Assembly: GCF_001412615.1 (NCBI RefSeq)
Contig: NZ_CP013011.1
Coordinates: 540,001-572,000 of the forward strand
Length of the DNA: 32,000 bases
Source of the DNA: Pyrodictium delaneyi
GTDB lineage: Archaea > Thermoproteota > Thermoprotei_A > Sulfolobales > Pyrodictiaceae
Direction of reading: 5' to 3'
A program made the position numbers and the translations under genes. Each line of letters begins with the position of its first letter. The first letter of the stretch is position 1. Positions 1 through 28,445 of the stretch are shown here, piece after piece. The notes below the pieces were generated by a model. The model did no database searches and was not told the origin of the DNA. It saw only the letters and a list, made by a program, of their open reading frames with translations.

Positions 1-404
<404 letters not shown>

Positions 405-4822: not shown

Positions 4823-4899
<77 letters not shown>

Positions 4900-4991: not shown

Positions 4992-5096
4992 GGGCTCAGA
5001 TGCGGGCCTTACCGCCATCCCCCGCGCATAGCGCGGGGTTTAGCGAAGCTAGCTCGGGTCTTCAACCCGGGTTCCCTCTTCATGGCCCCGCTGACC
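4992..5096 (+). other. candidate structured RNA (three-way junction), unassigned
   Basis: A closing helix pairs 5002-5008 with 5084-5091. It encloses two perfect hairpins. The first is 5020-5038 (CCCCGCGC-ATA-GCGCGGGG). The second is 5053-5071 (CTCGGGT-CTTCA-ACCCGGG), whose U:G wobble only pairs on the plus strand. Confidence 0.3.
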
Positions 5097-5303
5097 AGCC
5101 TTTGGATATACTGTGCTATTTGTGACACTGCCGCCAGAGTCCGGGGAGGCACGGAGACCTATATTAGGCCACTCCCAGGCTGACAGCACTGCGACACGGA
5201 AGACAGGGCCGCCTCCGGAGAGCCCGCCCAAAGGGCGGGTGATGAGGCTCAGCGGCCTCGCGTCGGGAGCACCCTGCAGCGAGGGCAGCTGTGACGCGTG
5301 AGA

Positions 5304-5380
5304 GGCCGCCGTAGCTCAGCCGGTAGAGCGCGGGGCTGTGGACCCCGAGGTCCCGGGTTCAAATCCCGGCGGCGGCCCCA
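5304..5380 (+). tRNA. tRNA-His (anticodon GTG) with encoded G-1 and CCA
   Basis: The sequence is G-GCCGCCG-TA-GCTC-AGCCGGTA-GAGC-G-CGGGG-CTGTGGA-CCCCG-AGGTC-CCGGG-TTCAAAT-CCCGG-CGGCGGC-C-CCA. The extra 5' G opposite C73 is the His identity element. Confidence 0.95.
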
Positions 5381-5473
5381 TTCACACCTTCTATACCTTC
5401 TGCAACCGCCATACGACCCAGCTATATGGATGCATGGCTTTCAGGGAGGACAACTGCCTTCAGCGCTTATACC

Positions 5474-5488
5474 TTAAGGTTAATTGAT
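5474..5488 (+). promoter_or_regulatory. putative RNase P RNA promoter (TATA-like TTAAGGTTAATTGAT)
   Basis: This A/T-rich box is centred ~27 nt upstream of the start of the P1 helix at ~5509. Confidence 0.35.
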
Positions 5489-5508
5489 GCCCTGGGACGA
5501 AGTATGCA

Positions 5509-5856
5509 CGGGGTTCTCCGGGCCTCGGCTGGCCGCTGACGGGCCGGAAAGGCCTGAGGAAACTCCGCCCTCCCCGCGGCACCGGGGCCCCGCAAGGGGC
5601 GCGGGTGAAACCCGCGGCAACGGCACAGAAACGGCACGCCCGCCCGCGGGAGGACTGTGATGCGGAGAGGGCCCGCCGGTAACGGTGGGCCAGTAACCCG
5701 CTGAGGACCCGGGCGGGTGCGTTGAAACGGCCGTCCCCCCGGGGAGCAAGGCGGCGCGCCGATGAGGGCCGCGCGACTGGCGCGCCGGTGTCCGCTTAGT
5801 CGAATGCGGCCGTAGGTACAGAAGGCGGGTTATAGCCGGGGCCCGGAGAACCCCGT
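5509..5856 (+). ncRNA. rnpB: RNase P RNA (archaeal type A)
   Basis: The P1 helix pairs GGGGTTCTCCGGGCC (5510-) with GGCCCGGAGAACCCC (-5855). A CR-I-like block is GAGGAAACTCCGCCC. ACAGAAA is present. A CR-IV-like block is GGGTGCGTTGAAACGGCC. A CR-V-like block is ACAGAAGGCGGGTTATAG. Length is ~350 nt and the region is G+C-rich. Confidence 0.85.
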
Positions 5857-7096: not shown

Positions 7097-7426
7097 CTAG
7101 GACTCCTTTCTATCCTTTTTGTCCACTGTTTTATTATTCTGATTATCTATCTGATTATCTAAACATGAAGCCGCATTGAGCTCACTACTATACTTGACCC
7201 TTAGAGCTTCCTCAGCATCTATACCTACCATAGCTGCTAGGCTGAGCGTCCATGCTATCACATCAGCTATCTCCTCGGCTATCTGTTTTCTATCACCTTT
7301 AAGGAGGGCTTCTCCAAGCTCACCAACCTCTTCCACGAGCCATGTAAATGTAGCATAGAGTCCACGGCCAACATCTCTATGACGGAAAGCCTTCTCCATA
7401 GCACGTTGTATACATGACAGCTCCAT
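7097..7426 (-). CDS. MazG-like nucleotide pyrophosphohydrolase
   Basis: The MazG metal-binding motifs EEVGELGEAL...EEIADVIAWTLSLA are present. The C-terminal tail is low-complexity. Confidence 0.75.
   Translation of the reverse strand: MELSCIQRAMEKAFRHRDVGRGLYATFTWLVEEVGELGEALLKGDRKQIAEEIADVIAWTLSLAAMVGIDAEEALRVKYSSELNAASCLDNQIDNQNNKTVDKKDRKES
7139..7161. repeat. tandem 12-bp duplication (CTGATTATCTA x2) inside the mazG-like 3' end
   Basis: CTGATTATCTA occurs at 7139-7149 and again at 7151-7161. This encodes the repeated DNQ(I/N) in the protein tail. Confidence 0.8.
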
Positions 7427-7591: not shown

Positions 7592-7786
7592 TTATATTAA
7601 GCTAAATACTATTACAGCAGCGATGAACCCTATTGTTATCATCATTACATGGAGTGGCTTTATCCTAAACAATGCATCTTCTTCACTGAAGGCCAGTAGA
7701 CCAGCTGCTGTGAAGACTGTCGGTGTAGTATCCTTGCCCTTACCCTCCTTCTCCTTCTTGCTACTCTTCTTTGCATTACGCGCCAT
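7592..7786 (-). CDS. secG: preprotein translocase subunit Sec61beta (SecG)
   Basis: The 64-aa protein has a Lys-rich N-terminus, the motif AAGLLAFSEE and a single C-terminal TM span (MMITIGFIAAVIVFSLI). Confidence 0.8.
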   Translation of the reverse strand: MARNAKKSSKKEKEGKGKDTTPTVFTAAGLLAFSEEDALFRIKPLHVMMITIGFIAAVIVFSLI

Positions 7787-7896
7787 GAGCTAGGCGTCAC
7801 CCCCCGGTAACTGTTGCGTACCGCTGGAGAGTGTCTTACCTCTTTCCCTCCAGATCTAGAGGCTGCACAGACAGTACTAGACCCACTACTGTCCCA

Positions 7897-7919
7897 CTCC
7901 ACAGGAAAGCTAGGGGTTG
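7897..7919 (+). repeat. ORB-like box a
   Basis: CTCCACAGGAAAGCTAGGGGTTG matches box d at 18/23 positions. It shares the CTCCA...GGAAA...GGGGT frame. Confidence 0.5.
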
Positions 7920-7974
7920 TATGACTAACCTTTTCACTTATTCAATACAATGCTAATATTTGTCTTTGGGAGGG

Positions 7975-7996
7975 ACCCCTCTGTTTCTACTGGATA
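7975..7996 (-). repeat. ORB-like box b (inverted)
   Basis: The rc reads TATCCAGTAGAAACAGAGGGGT. It is 19/21 identical to box d over TCCAGTRGAAACNGAGGGGT. Confidence 0.7.
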
Positions 7997-8164
7997 AGTA
8001 CAGACGTCGCAATCAATCTATGGATCTATTATGTCTCACTCATTAGTATTGAATGAAAGTTTAGACAAACCAAATTATATGGAATTTAATGTTGAGCGTT
8101 AAAGCTGTAATGACAGAAACGAATGGCCAACATATCTGCGGTCCATGTAATGTTGCGCAAATTG

Positions 8165-8185
8165 TCTACTTGAAACGGCGGGGTC
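8165..8185 (+). repeat. ORB-like box c (degenerate)
   Basis: TCTACTTGAAACGGCGGGGTC matches box d at 15/20 positions. It keeps the GAAAC-N3-GGGGT half. Confidence 0.4.
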
Positions 8186-8271
8186 TGTCTCCGGAGTACT
8201 GCTAAGTTGTCACCCTTGGCGCCAGCACAGCTACAGCAATGCCAGTAGTACTGTTGTGGGTATATGGTGGG

Positions 8272-8294
8272 CTCCAGTGGAAACTGAGGGGTTG
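8272..8294 (+). repeat. ORB-like box d
   Basis: CTCCAGTGGAAACTGAGGGGTTG contains the TCCAGTGGAAAC core plus a G-string, as in Sulfolobus/Aeropyrum ORB elements. Confidence 0.7.
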
Positions 8295-8299
8295 TTTAC

Positions 8300-9544
8300 C
8301 TAGAGGTAAACATCATCGCTCATTATCGGTGTCGAGGGCGGAGTTACAGACTTCCCTACCGGATGGCGGCCTGGAGGCAGCATAAGGTGGTGGAATGAGG
8401 ATAAGGGTGGAGTATAGTAGCCGCAGTAGCGAAGCTCCTCTGTAGGGCAGCCCTTGTCAGCCGTGAGGCCAGGCTCGTAAACACGTAGATACTCGGCATT
8501 GAGGGTTATGCCACCCCTATGTGGCTTTACTTGTCCACCAACCTCTATCTGCGAGCCTCGTGGCAGACGTAATGCTATCCTCTTGAGCACACCAGTCTCT
8601 CTGTAGAACGCTACGTCTATACACCCTGTGTCGTCGCAGAGCTCTGTTATTACGTGGCCACCTGGAATCCTTTGCACCGAGGATACATACCCCACGAGTA
8701 CAGGGTTATCATAGGGCCTAGTCTCTGAGACCCTCTTTCTCCGCAGGTGAGCGTTTGTAGCTTGATTAGTTCGGAAGAGTATCCAGTGGCTGTACTCCTC
8801 TCCGGCATCGATGATATCTAGTGCTTTGAGCAGAATGCCTGGCTCTTCTCCGCGGACACCATAGAGTACAGGGTCGTAACCATGTGGATGTATCAGTACA
8901 CGTTTCTCCAAGTAGTCGTAGTTCATGAATGTTAGAGGTCGTGTACGTAGGTCGTATTCTATCACACTCAGCTCGTCTATTCTTCGCTCAAAGGTCCAAC
9001 GGTCTATCTTCCTGTAGGTTATTAGCTCGAATGTGAAGTCGTCTAGAACAGCACCTAGGGCGGCTAGGGCGCCTAGTATGCCTCGCGAGTCAACACCATA
9101 TGCAGCTATTGCCCGATTCCCAGCTTCCTCTATGCATTCTTGTGCCAGTCTTAAGGGCAGGGCCTCGTGGACTGCCCTCAGGTAGAGTCTCTCTAGGCAC
9201 CTAGGCCTCACGGTGAAGTAGTCTCTAAGCGTGGTTGCCTCCTCTAGGAGAAGTAGCACATATGCCTCCTTGCTGGAAGGGTTGGCCGAGTAAAGCTTGG
9301 CAGCTCTGTGGAGTAGTTCTGAGAGCTTCTCTAGATCCCGTCTGCTCTCTATGCTGAAAAGTAGTGCTACTGCACCGTTGCCTCTTGTTTTCCAGGGTAC
9401 TGCAGGGTTTAGACGGATAAGCCACGGGTAGTCTACTAGGCTCAACCCCTCCTCTACGGCTTTATGAGTTATTAGCGAGGCTAGGTGTGTAGTGCAGCCG
9501 GCAAACGATGTATCAAAACTATCAAGGCCTACAGCGGCTATCAA
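8300..9544 (-). CDS. tiaS: tRNA(Ile2) 2-agmatinylcytidine synthetase TiaS
   Basis: The N-terminus reads GLDSFDTSFAGCTTHL, and RLNPAVPWKTRGNGA is present. Both match the TiaS/DUF1743 signature. Confidence 0.8.
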   Translation of the reverse strand: MIAAVGLDSFDTSFAGCTTHLASLITHKAVEEGLSLVDYPWLIRLNPAVPWKTRGNGAVALLFSIESRRDLEKLSELLHRAAKLYSANPSSKEAYVLLLLEEATTLRDYFTVRPRCLERLYLRAVHEALPLRLAQECIEEAGNRAIAAYGVDSRGILGALAALGAVLDDFTFELITYRKIDRWTFERRIDELSVIEYDLRTRPLTFMNYDYLEKRVLIHPHGYDPVLYGVRGEEPGILLKALDIIDAGEEYSHWILFRTNQATNAHLRRKRVSETRPYDNPVLVGYVSSVQRIPGGHVITELCDDTGCIDVAFYRETGVLKRIALRLPRGSQIEVGGQVKPHRGGITLNAEYLRVYEPGLTADKGCPTEELRYCGYYTPPLSSFHHLMLPPGRHPVGKSVTPPSTPIMSDDVYL

Positions 9545-9785: not shown

Positions 9786-10031
9786 CTAGAAGTTTTCATG
9801 ATCCTTTACGACTATCATTGTTAGTGTTGATCGTACTCTCGGTGAGCTGCGCAGATTTTTGTACACGATGTCCCTCAGTTTACCCATGTCATCGCTCTCT
9901 ATTATAGCGACTATGTCGTAGAGTCCGTACACCATGTATACTGCACGTACCTCGGGGAGATTCTTTAGGGTCTCAAAGATCTCTTCGTCGGCCCCCATTT
10001 CGGTATTTATTAGGATGACAGCTTTGGGCAC
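9786..10031 (-). CDS. stand-alone Lrp/AsnC ligand-binding (RAM) domain protein
   Basis: The 81-aa protein has a pattern (AVILINTEMG...VYMVYGLYDIVAIIES) typical of the AsnC_trans_reg domain without an HTH. Confidence 0.7.
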   Translation of the reverse strand: MPKAVILINTEMGADEEIFETLKNLPEVRAVYMVYGLYDIVAIIESDDMGKLRDIVYKNLRSSPRVRSTLTMIVVKDHENF

Positions 10032-10197
10032 GAATTACACCCCTTCAGGCCTCCATAGTCCTACGGTTGTTGCCAGGGAGATTAATACAGATAGTGGGTG
10101 GGTGTATAGAAGGCTTCGTACAGTACCTAAACACTTGCCTCCGCCACTCACTACTATAGCAGGGTGGATAGGTGTTCTAGGGCGAAGTGATGTAGTA

Positions 10198-10809
10198 ATG
10201 CGGGGCAGCGGTGACGGTTTTGGCGTAAGGCTTTACGCTATATACCTCCGGCATGATAACCCTAAGTACAATACTGCGGCCAAGCTCATAAGGCTAGGAA
10301 TAGTCAGGGAGGTCAGAAAGCCGCCGCGCGGTAGTATAGTGCTTGACCCATTATCTCCATTTCCTGTCTCAGCCTCCGATAGGGGGCTCGTAGGGACCCA
10401 TGGAGTCTGTGTGATAGACGGGTCATGGCGTAAAGTAATAAGGATACTAGGCCGTATACCGGGAGGAGTTAAGAGAAGACTACCACTCCTTCTTGCAGCC
10501 AACCCTGTAAACTACGGGAAACCGTTCCTCCTCAGTAGTGCTGAGGCGCTAGCAGCTACACTCTACATCACTGGCTTCATAGACGAAGCTCTAAGGGTGC
10601 TTTCCGTATTCAAGTGGGGCTACACGTTCATTGAGTTGAATAAGTCACTACTAGAGAGGTACACTGGGAAAACACAGAAAGAAGTAATTGAATCAGAGTG
10701 TAACATACTGAGAGATACTATAGGACTTGAGCTGGACGAATGCTCCGGAGAGAATCTTCTAGCAATCTACAAGCGTGTACTAGAAAGCTACGAAGAGAAA
10801 GGTCGCTAG
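10198..10809 (+). CDS. tsr3: 16S rRNA aminocarboxypropyltransferase Tsr3
   Basis: Motifs seen are YAIYLRHDNPKYNTAAKL, VIDGSW and LLAANPVNYGKPFLLSSAEALAA. I take the start at ATG 10198, because the tracked ORF start at 9934 runs antisense into the neighbouring gene. Confidence 0.8.
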   Translation: MRGSGDGFGVRLYAIYLRHDNPKYNTAAKLIRLGIVREVRKPPRGSIVLDPLSPFPVSASDRGLVGTHGVCVIDGSWRKVIRILGRIPGGVKRRLPLLLAANPVNYGKPFLLSSAEALAATLYITGFIDEALRVLSVFKWGYTFIELNKSLLERYTGKTQKEVIESECNILRDTIGLELDECSGENLLAIYKRVLESYEEKGR

Positions 10810-10879: not shown

Positions 10880-10967
10880 TGGTGCGGGGGGTGGGATTTG
10901 AACCCACGCAGGCCTACGCCAGCGGGTCCTAAGCCCGCCCCCTTTGACCTGGCTCGGGCACCCCCGC
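10880..10967 (-). tRNA. tRNA-Leu (anticodon TAG), long variable arm, CCA encoded
   Basis: The rc reads GCGGGGGTGCCCGAGCCAGGTCAAAGGGGGCGGGCTTAGGACCCGCTGGCGTAGGCCTGCGTGGGTTCAAATCCCACCCCCCGCACCA. The anticodon loop is CTTAGGA. Confidence 0.95.
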
Positions 10968-17402: not shown

Positions 17403-17541
17403 CCTACCTTTCGGGCAGCGTTAGTGAGAAGCCATGATACCATTTATAGCCGGTTTCTGTCCAATCTTCCAAGCGCAATGCCCTCCTCTCACTCTTATAC
17501 CCTTTCCCTCGGAGAATTCTATAGCGTGGGGGCGCCCGGTA

Positions 17542-18291
17542 ATGGCGAAAGCTAGACTGTCATATCCTGACGCAAAGTCGTTCTACAACATGCTTGACGC
17601 TATATCCAAGATAGTGGATGAAGTTACAATGATAATAACAAATGACGGTATCAAAGCAATAGCGCTGGACCCTGCTCACGTTGCACTAATAACTATAGAG
17701 TTGCCACCAGAGAGCTTCATAGAGTACGAGGTTGAGGGCGACGAAGTAAAGCTAGGATTCAACGTAGCGAACACGGCTAAGCTAATCAAACGAGGAAAGA
17801 AAGGAGACAAGCTAGACATAGAAGTAGACGAAGAGAGAGTTACATGGTCAATCGTAGGTGCTACTATAAAGCGCTACCGTGTACTAAACCTTGACGTTCC
17901 CGTCCCTGAGATCCCGGAGGCTCAGCTCGAGTTCAAGATAAGGGTAGCAATGATAGTCGATCCCTTCAAGAATGCATTGAAGGACGCCGAAGCTGTTGGC
18001 GATACGGTAGAGCTAGAAGCCCCCGACGAGAGCACGTTCATCATAAGAGGTGTGGGAGCTGCGACAGCTGAGGCTAAGATCAGAAGTGACTCACCGGCGG
18101 TAGTAGAGTTTAGCGTCGACGAGCCAGGAAAGTCGGCCTATAGCATAGACTATCTAAAACATGTCGTCTCGCTAACAAAAGTTGCCGACACAATATCAAT
18201 AGAGTTCTCGCAGGATATGCCACTGAGGCTACAGTTCCAGCTGCCAGCCGGAGGTAAGGTAACCTATCTGCTAGCACCCAAAGTAGCATAA
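17542..18291 (+). CDS. pcn: DNA polymerase sliding clamp (PCNA) subunit
   Basis: The N-terminus is MAKARLSYPDAKSFYNMLDAISKIVDEV..., and the C-terminus is KVTYLLAPKV. At 249 aa from ATG 17542 it has the usual PCNA length. The 36 codons upstream in the tracked ORF are not PCNA-like. Confidence 0.85.
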   Translation: MAKARLSYPDAKSFYNMLDAISKIVDEVTMIITNDGIKAIALDPAHVALITIELPPESFIEYEVEGDEVKLGFNVANTAKLIKRGKKGDKLDIEVDEERVTWSIVGATIKRYRVLNLDVPVPEIPEAQLEFKIRVAMIVDPFKNALKDAEAVGDTVELEAPDESTFIIRGVGAATAEAKIRSDSPAVVEFSVDEPGKSAYSIDYLKHVVSLTKVADTISIEFSQDMPLRLQFQLPAGGKVTYLLAPKVA

Positions 18292-27492: not shown

Positions 27493-28200
27493 ATGGTGGA
27501 GGTAGTTAACGTTTATGAGCACGAGCGCTACAAGGGCGTCTACGTAGTAGAACTCGAAGATGGATCTACACGCCTCGCCACAGTAAACCTAGCACCCGGG
27601 AAAAGAGTGTACGGCGAGAGGCTATTCAAGTGGGAGGACAAGGAACTCAGAGAGTGGAACCCCTATCGTAGTAAGCTTGCAGCAGCACTCCTAAAGGGTA
27701 TCGAAGAGCTCCCAATAAAGCCAGGGCACAGAATACTATACCTAGGTGCAGCAACAGGTACCACACCCAGCCATGTATCCGACATAATAGGGCTAGAAGG
27801 TAAGATATACGCGCTTGATGTAGCTCCACGTGTTATGAGGGAACTGATAGCGGTTTGTGAGACACGGCCAAACATGCTACCACTCCTAGCAGACGCTAAG
27901 AAGCCATACGAGTACCGTCACATAGTTGAGCTTGTTGACGGCGTATACGCGGATGTTGCACAGCCAGAGCAGGCAGAAATAGTCGCGGATAATGCGGACT
28001 TCTTCCTAAAGGAGGGCGGCTACCTCCTACTAGCGATAAAGGCTAGGAGCATCGACGTCACCAAGGAGCCTAGCGAGGTATTCCGCAACCAGATAGAGGT
28101 GCTAAAGAACCGTGGCTTCGAAATAGTAGACATGGTGCACCTAGAGCCCTTCGATAAAGATCACGCAATGGTTTATGCAAGGTATAAGCCGCAGAAATAA
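27493..28200 (+). CDS. flpA: fibrillarin-like rRNA/tRNA 2'-O-methyltransferase
   Basis: Motifs seen are [35 protein letters not shown] and DVAQPEQA. I take the start at ATG 27493; the tracked TTG is at 27475. Confidence 0.9.
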
Positions 28201-28445
28201 GCTCCAAAACACAATCTTTTAACTACACTTATGAAAATCAACAATAGACTAATACTATGCTGTTGATATCTTGTTTTGGTTTGATAACCATTTGTAGATT
28301 ATAATAATCAGCTACTTATAGGATATGGTTGGCAACACTGCATTGATTATATTGGTAACCTTCATACTTTCCAGTATATCTCGGGAAGCCAGAAGGAGTA
28401 TACTCTAACTCTAACCTAGCTGCACGGACTAAGGGAAGATAGGCT

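Follow-up and report, generated by a model that had tools for sequence, protein, structure and literature searches.

The sec61beta-tiaS spacer

The window analyzed here is a 32-kb stretch of the Pyrodictium delaneyi chromosome. Within it, the spacer between sec61beta and tiaS (7787-8299) harbors four copies of a motif resembling the origin recognition box (ORB), here termed boxes a to d. The boxes surround an A/T-rich segment, presumed to be a duplex unwinding element (DUE), that contains an element similar to the ucm of Sulfolobus origins (Table 1). An original prediction, made from the letters of the window, had proposed this spacer as a candidate replication origin with no initiator gene nearby.

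Scanning the window for the ORB pattern TCCASWDGAAASNNNGGGG, one mismatch being allowed, returns four matches, which are boxes a to d and nothing else. One hundred dinucleotide-preserving shuffles of the window return none (expected number, 0), ruling out a chance origin of the four boxes. The boxes match the archaeal consensus (TCCA-SW-GGAAA, 3-5 nt, GGGG) and cluster within 400 bp of intergenic DNA, box c with one mismatch to the scanned pattern, and their sequences and coordinates are exactly those originally predicted. The spacer was said to lack a sizeable open reading frame (ORF); indeed, its ORFs are all short mechanical calls (41-80 aa) running over the edges.

The ORBs are inverted around the DUE, with box b on the minus strand and boxes c and d on the plus strand. 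Boxes b and d pair as inverted copies, 18/20 complementary, with 278 nt between the arms; the pairing had been recognized correctly, and only the earlier figures of 19/21 and about 277 bp require minor revision. The 170-bp segment between boxes b and c has a G+C content of 35% against 51% for the window and ranks within the lowest 0.7% of segments of that length. Measured values of 26.7% over 8041-8100 and 30% over 7921-7970 bear out the low G+C reported for these two intervals. Cumulative GC skew reaches its minimum at 7-9 kb, a weak signal in a sequence that, at 32 kb, is too short for it to carry weight.

The 8-nt direct repeat TAATGTTG noted earlier is present at positions 8087 and 8148 only. 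It was considered as a functional element and set aside: the repeat is real, yet it has no conservation in relatives and is probably incidental. A second A/T-rich intergenic stretch lies in the gap between the fibrillarin and DUF61 genes (28191-28445) and includes the lowest G+C content of the window (29% over 170 bp); ORB and ucm scans gave no match in this stretch.

The ucm-like element

The pattern WTWKACAAAC has a single match in the window, in the middle of the A/T-rich segment, and this ucm-like element is a feature that the original prediction overlooked. A UBP-bound ucm within the DUE is a trait of Sulfolobales and Desulfurococcales origins. The ucm sits in the DUE of Sulfolobus oriC1 and is essential, since oriC1 of S. 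islandicus does not fire without it; both Aeropyrum pernix origins contain one as well (PMC12141716). The Sulfolobus sequence ATTATACAAAC, derived from the wild-type and mutated oligonucleotides of that study, is identical to the window sequence TTTAGACAAAC at 9 of 11 positions.

A genome-collection scan with the 21-nt ORB sequence CTCCACAGGAAANNNAGGGGT matched at least 120 loci; 112 of the 120 matches listed are archaeal, and P. delaneyi is not among them. Among these matches, 23 related loci belong to Desulfurococcales, Acidilobaceae, and other Thermoprotei, and 18 of the 23 carry TTATACAAAC once per locus, between the ORBs or right beside them. The form GTTTAGACAAAC is shared by the window and one further Pyrodictium species, while most relatives carry GTTTATACAAAC. 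The difference is a single base: at the fifth ucm position (window 8064; locus L002, 11472-11481), both Pyrodictium species have G in place of T, giving TTAGACAAAC where most relatives have TTATACAAAC.

Conservation in the Pyrodictiaceae

Spacers of 470-530 bp separate tiaS and sec61beta, in the same gene order, in P. occultum, Hyperthermus butylicus, and Pyrofollis japonicus, and gene order is identical in a second P. delaneyi assembly. The window, these three species, and five Pyrodictiaceae spacers from the ORB scan were combined in a nine-sequence alignment. The spacer as a whole is diverged, with a mean column identity of 48%, and the DUE outside the ucm is unconserved (47-55%). The original prediction had suggested examining whether the boxes are conserved in related genomes, and they are: boxes and ucm reach 74-96% column identity versus 40-58% for the segments between these blocks (Table 1). 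Strong purifying selection acts on exactly the boxes and the ucm, as judged from the alignment.

Table 1. Features of the window. Column identity and invariant columns refer to the nine-sequence Pyrodictiaceae alignment.
Feature	Position	Strand	Column identity	Invariant columns	Remarks
ORB box a	7897-7919	+	96%	19/23	CTCCACAGGAAAGCTAGGGGTTG; counterpart of A. pernix ORB1; outer box, sec61beta side
ORB box b	7975-7994	-	81%	10/22	TCCAGTAGAAACAGAGGGGT on the - strand; counterpart of ORB2; inverted; left edge of DUE
A/T-rich segment (presumed DUE)	7995-8164	.			between inverted boxes
ucm-like element	8059-8070	+	94%	9/12	GTTTAGACAAAC; inside A/T core
ORB box c	8165-8185	+	74%	5/21	TCTACTTGAAACGGCGGGGTC; counterpart of ORB3; degenerate inner box; right edge of DUE
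ORB box d	8272-8294	+	88% (with 5' flank GTGGG)	16/29 (with 5' flank GTGGG)	CTCCAGTGGAAACTGAGGGGTTG; counterpart of ORB4; outer box; ends 6 bp before tiaS stop codon
sec61beta	7592-7786	-			Pfam Sec61_beta; landmark on the other side in Pyrodictiaceae
tiaS (tRNA-Ile2 agmatidine synthetase)	8300-9544	-			Pfam TiaS_FLD and TiaS_TCKD
MazG	7097-7426	-			Pfam
PCNA	17434-18291	+			Pfam
16S rRNA gene, 5' part	1-404	-			runs off window start
RNase P RNA	5520-5844	+
tRNA-Ala(CGC)	4823-4899	-
tRNA-His(GTG)	5305-5380	+
tRNA-Leu(TAG)	10880-10967	-
AsnC-type regulator	9786-10031	-			conserved; 81 aa
Tsr3-like ORF	9934-10809	+			mechanical ORF; 291 aa; ribosome biogenesis

The spacers of H. butylicus, P. 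occultum, and Pyrofollis japonicus share flanking genes, box order, and box sequences with the window, and they too are predicted origins. For H. butylicus, two oriCs are entered in DoriC (PMC4164010, Table 2). The H. butylicus spacer (locus L004; CP000493.1, ~5011-5539) lies about 5 kb from coordinate 1. In another Pyrodictium sp. (L073, 500-1768), a spacer of about 1 kb retains box a, the ucm, and box d beside a sec61beta gene in the opposite orientation to that of the window. Two contigs of one Pyrodictiaceae metagenome-assembled genome (L060, 1-406; L119, 2309-2686) both end inside the ORB cluster with identical boxes; the assembly broke at the origin.

Correspondence to Aeropyrum pernix Ori1

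The oriC1 of A. pernix was reportedly described by Grainge et al. in 2006 and by Robinson and Bell in 2007, and the structure of ORC1 on ORB4 is PDB 2V1U. In A. pernix K1, Ori1 spans chromosomal positions 444,909-445,231 and has an A/T-rich region between ORB2 and ORB3; Orc1-1 binds Ori1, whereupon the ORB2-ORB3 segment becomes sensitive to P1 nuclease (PMC8287685). Both A. pernix origins are active by marker-frequency analysis (PMC10769869).

The Ori1 layout of ORB1(+), ORB2(-), A/T-rich region with ucm, ORB3(+), and ORB4(+) aligns in order with a(+), b(-), ucm, c(+), and d(+) of the window, a correspondence to an experimentally mapped origin that is joined by a link in gene order. Both loci have strong outer boxes of the CTCCACAGGAAA...AGGGGT type and a degenerate third box, which in A. 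pernix reads ATCCAGCGGAAAAAGGGGGTG. They also share the flank after the last box (GGGGT.GT.TACC), a similar spacing between the first and second boxes (~75-78 bp, counted from the sequences), and a ucm-type element in the A/T core (TTTAGACAAAC in the window, ATGATACAAAAAC in A. pernix). Neither adjoins orc1/cdc6. The two differ in that the b-c (170 bp) and c-d spacers of the window are longer than those of Ori1, and in their flanks, which are sec61beta and tiaS in the window whereas rpiA lies on one side in an Aeropyrum-type locus (L105). Ori1 is experimentally validated, whereas the origin in the window is a prediction.

Gene order links the two loci through intermediates. The order sec61beta-ORBs-tiaS of the window becomes rpiA-ORBs-tiaS in five Acidilobaceae or Desulfurococcales loci (L038, L040, L077, L110, and L120) and rpiA-ORBs in L105, whose ORB1 and flank nearly equal those of A. 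pernix K1. In Acidilobaceae and Aeropyrum-like genomes, rpiA occupies the place of sec61beta. In L038 and L040, MazG, PcrB, and Elf1 follow just past rpiA, as in the window, and the orientation of ORBs and ucm relative to tiaS is the same in every linked locus.

Comparison with other origins and the position of the initiator gene

Like the window, oriC1 of Sulfolobus (Saccharolobus) places inverted ORBs around an A/T-rich DUE holding a ucm, and the ORB consensus in both is of the TCCAGTGGAAAC...GGGG type. The Sulfolobus origin is Orc1-1-dependent and has three ORBs (ORB1-3) directly upstream of orc1-1/cdc6-1, whereas the window contains four boxes and, in all its 32 kb, no initiator gene. The same ORB core, matched by CTCCACAGGAAANNNAGGGGT, characterizes the cdc6-linked oriC of Euryarchaeota and DPANN (e.g. 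Pyrococcus, and loci of Methanomassiliicoccales, Methanothrix, and Woesearchaeota). Among the matches listed, the motif lies directly beside cdc6 in 22 loci and beside mcm in 8, a typical origin context. All of these loci fall outside the Thermoprotei, except for the MCM-flanked L115, which is labelled as an Acidobacteriota metagenome-assembled genome.

An adjacent orc1/cdc6 is usual at most archaeal origins and is not required; the window has none at the spacer, and no Cdc6/Orc1 gene was found anywhere in it by Pfam or by tblastn with three Cdc6 queries. Its annotated ORFs include no WhiP-like gene, and the adjacent whiP of a WhiP-type origin is accordingly missing. The original prediction regarded this neighborhood as unusual on the premise that characterized crenarchaeal origins adjoin orc1/cdc6 or whiP. 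That premise is wrong because neither A. pernix cdc6 gene adjoins its origins (PMC5333045), and the supposed anomaly proves ordinary for the clade. No Cdc6 is found in the roughly 25 Thermoprotei loci among the matches listed or in the 20-kb Pyrodictiaceae loci. The neighbors of the ORB cluster in these approximately 25 listed loci are instead tiaS, rpiA, or further genes that encode no initiator, and tiaS is no more than about 0.5 kb from the cluster in over 15 related loci.

Where an initiator might reside was examined with A. pernix ORC1, rebuilt from a PDB alignment, as the query and with Stetteria hydrogenophila as a proxy for P. delaneyi. Counterparts of Orc1-1 with 64-98% identity to the query are common in Desulfurococcales, including Stetteria, among the matches listed. 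In S. hydrogenophila, the tiaS 3' end and the adjoining spacer carry four ORBs and a ucm, and no ORB occurs within 4 kb of the orc1-1 locus. An oriC1 without a linked initiator gene, usually next to tiaS, is the norm in Pyrodictiaceae, Acidilobaceae, Desulfurococcaceae, and Aeropyrum-like genomes. An adjacent orc1/cdc6 does not define the oriC1-type family because it is absent at the validated A. pernix oriC1 and at every related Thermoprotei locus examined.

Interpretation and alternative explanations

The spacer at 7897-8294 is predicted, with a probability of roughly 0.86, to be an Orc1-1-dependent, oriC1-type chromosomal origin of P. delaneyi and the counterpart of A. pernix Ori1/oriC1. 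Motif statistics, conservation, the ucm, and the match to A. pernix Ori1 strongly support what had been proposed at the outset, an ORB-type origin with inverted ORBs around an A/T-rich element. By analogy with Aeropyrum and Sulfolobus, the locus would fire in vivo in P. delaneyi and be bound there by Orc1-1 and UBP.

In the proposed mechanism, Orc1-1, encoded elsewhere on the chromosome, would act in trans, binding each ORB with fixed polarity through its winged-helix domain and initiator-specific motif. Box b on one strand and boxes c and d on the other would bracket the 170-bp unwinding element in opposed orientation, and the oppositely oriented inner boxes might direct MCM loading onto this A/T-rich segment, where the duplex would open. 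The central ucm-like element would be bound by UBP, a nucleoid protein. Sulfolobus UBP is needed for origin activity at a step after MCM recruitment (PMC12141716), and UBP at the P. delaneyi ucm may assist the same step. Box a could serve as a conserved outer Orc1-1 site, like A. pernix ORB1. Replication would then proceed bidirectionally.

Several points weigh against this reading. Box c is degenerate, and the ucm of the window carries the G-for-T variant at 8064, unlike most relatives, a change that may affect UBP binding. The Ori1 sequence used for alignment is a machine-read version of the PMC8287685 supplement in which small errors are possible, and the link in gene order runs through metagenome-assembled genomes. 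P. delaneyi is not among the 120 Orc1-1 matches listed, which are mostly Acidilobus metagenome sequences. Finally, dormant origins exist in archaea, as described for Haloferax mediterranei (PMC4595724).

The last point leads to the foremost alternative: the origin may be dormant or a relic, or Orc1 may bind the spacer for another purpose, such as local transcription control or chromatin organization, with the ORBs kept but no firing in normal growth. The unlinked initiator gene might be taken in its favor, but an unlinked initiator is the norm of the clade, as in Stetteria, and the corresponding A. pernix origin is active in vivo. Selection has also kept the four boxes, the ucm, and their order and orientation in at least nine Pyrodictiaceae and many Desulfurococcales, and dormancy is therefore considered unlikely. 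Far less likely still is a secondary origin, captured when a plasmid or virus integrated, a history that has been proposed for Sulfolobus oriC3 and A. pernix oriC2. Capture of extrachromosomal elements is accepted as the source of some crenarchaeal origins (Robinson and Bell 2007, cited through PMC4010727), but the neighborhood here consists entirely of housekeeping genes, with no integrase, initiator, or viral gene in the window. The same gene order extends across whole families, and the motifs belong to the Orc1-1/oriC1 type, not to that of WhiP. Attachment-site repeats, integrase remnants, and loss of the locus in close relatives were not seen.

A noncoding RNA gene, or promoter and terminator signals of sec61beta and tiaS with a coincidental likeness to ORBs, is very improbable: although the spacer must hold the sec61beta promoter and the tiaS transcript end, and box d comes within 6 bp of the tiaS stop codon, the same 20-nt motif occurs four times against a chance expectation of 0 and matches the pan-archaeal ORB found beside cdc6 or mcm in other lineages. 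The spacer has no Rfam match at gathering thresholds (permissive best E = 0.52) and no tRNA according to ARAGORN. RNAalifold returns a covariation term of -0.48 kcal/mol, and its long-range "pairs" join only boxes b and d, two copies of a single motif in opposite orientation. Within the reach of these tools, structured RNA in the spacer is excluded, and a bacterial-type promoter and terminator scan is uninformative for an archaeon.

A few positions of boxes b and d (7975-7994 and 8272-8292) do change together across species, and RNAalifold counts four two-sided "pairs" between them. With a covariation term as small as -0.48 kcal/mol, these changes do not fit an RNA helix; they fit gene conversion, or a single protein that reads both sites.

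Linkage to tiaS and significance

As a landmark, tiaS is conserved beside the origin and is no functional part of it. The linkage of oriC1 to tiaS, rather than to orc1-1, might nevertheless be ancient and selected, with an ancestral order of tiaS-oriC1-orc1-1 from which the initiator moved away in Desulfurococcales-type lineages. This scenario is tentative and on balance doubtful. Under it, initiator expression may have become separated from the origin, and the position of the origin at or overlapping the tiaS 3' end may be functional, for example through transcription into ORB4. The T-to-G change in the ucm of two Pyrodictium species may likewise reflect co-evolution with their UBP. In five listed loci of Methanomassiliicoccales and Methanobacteriota (L030, L063, L065, L046, and L026), tiaS lies about 1-3 kb from the ORB site, and the first three have the order tiaS-(hflX GTPase)-ORB-cdc6. 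The linkage of tiaS to the origin may predate the Thermoprotei, or it may be coincidence.

A search of the literature available found no report of a P. delaneyi origin. The spacer provides a precise, testable origin coordinate for a Pyrodictium species, an organism whose growth temperature approaches the upper limit for life and whose origins are unmapped, and it indicates that the ORB-ucm-ORB design known from Sulfolobus and Aeropyrum is kept throughout the Pyrodictiaceae. The predicted P. delaneyi origin is new as a locus and of a kind already well known; an initiator-unlinked origin is documented for A. pernix, leaving the understanding of archaeal replication unchanged. The practical consequence concerns genome annotation. 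Origin prediction anchored on cdc6 will miss oriC1 across the clade, for which tiaS is a better landmark. Of the two origins listed for A. pernix, Ori-Finder 2 recovered only one, and the same holds for H. butylicus (PMC4164010).

Gene neighborhood

The neighbors named in the original prediction, MazG-like, Sec61beta, and TiaS, together with a distant PCNA, are all confirmed by Pfam. Genes of the window include those for 16S rRNA, RNase P RNA, tRNAs, TiaS, the CCA-adding enzyme, PCNA, Nop5, fibrillarin, and AspRS. RNase P RNA and three tRNAs lie within 8 kb of the predicted origin. It sits among tightly packed core information-processing genes, a setting also described for the A. pernix origins.

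The Tsr3-like ORF overlaps the gene for the AsnC-type regulator. Since Tsr3 is called at about 195-200 aa in relatives, the true start of Tsr3 in the window is probably further downstream. The AsnC-tiaS pair adjoining the origin is kept in many genomes.

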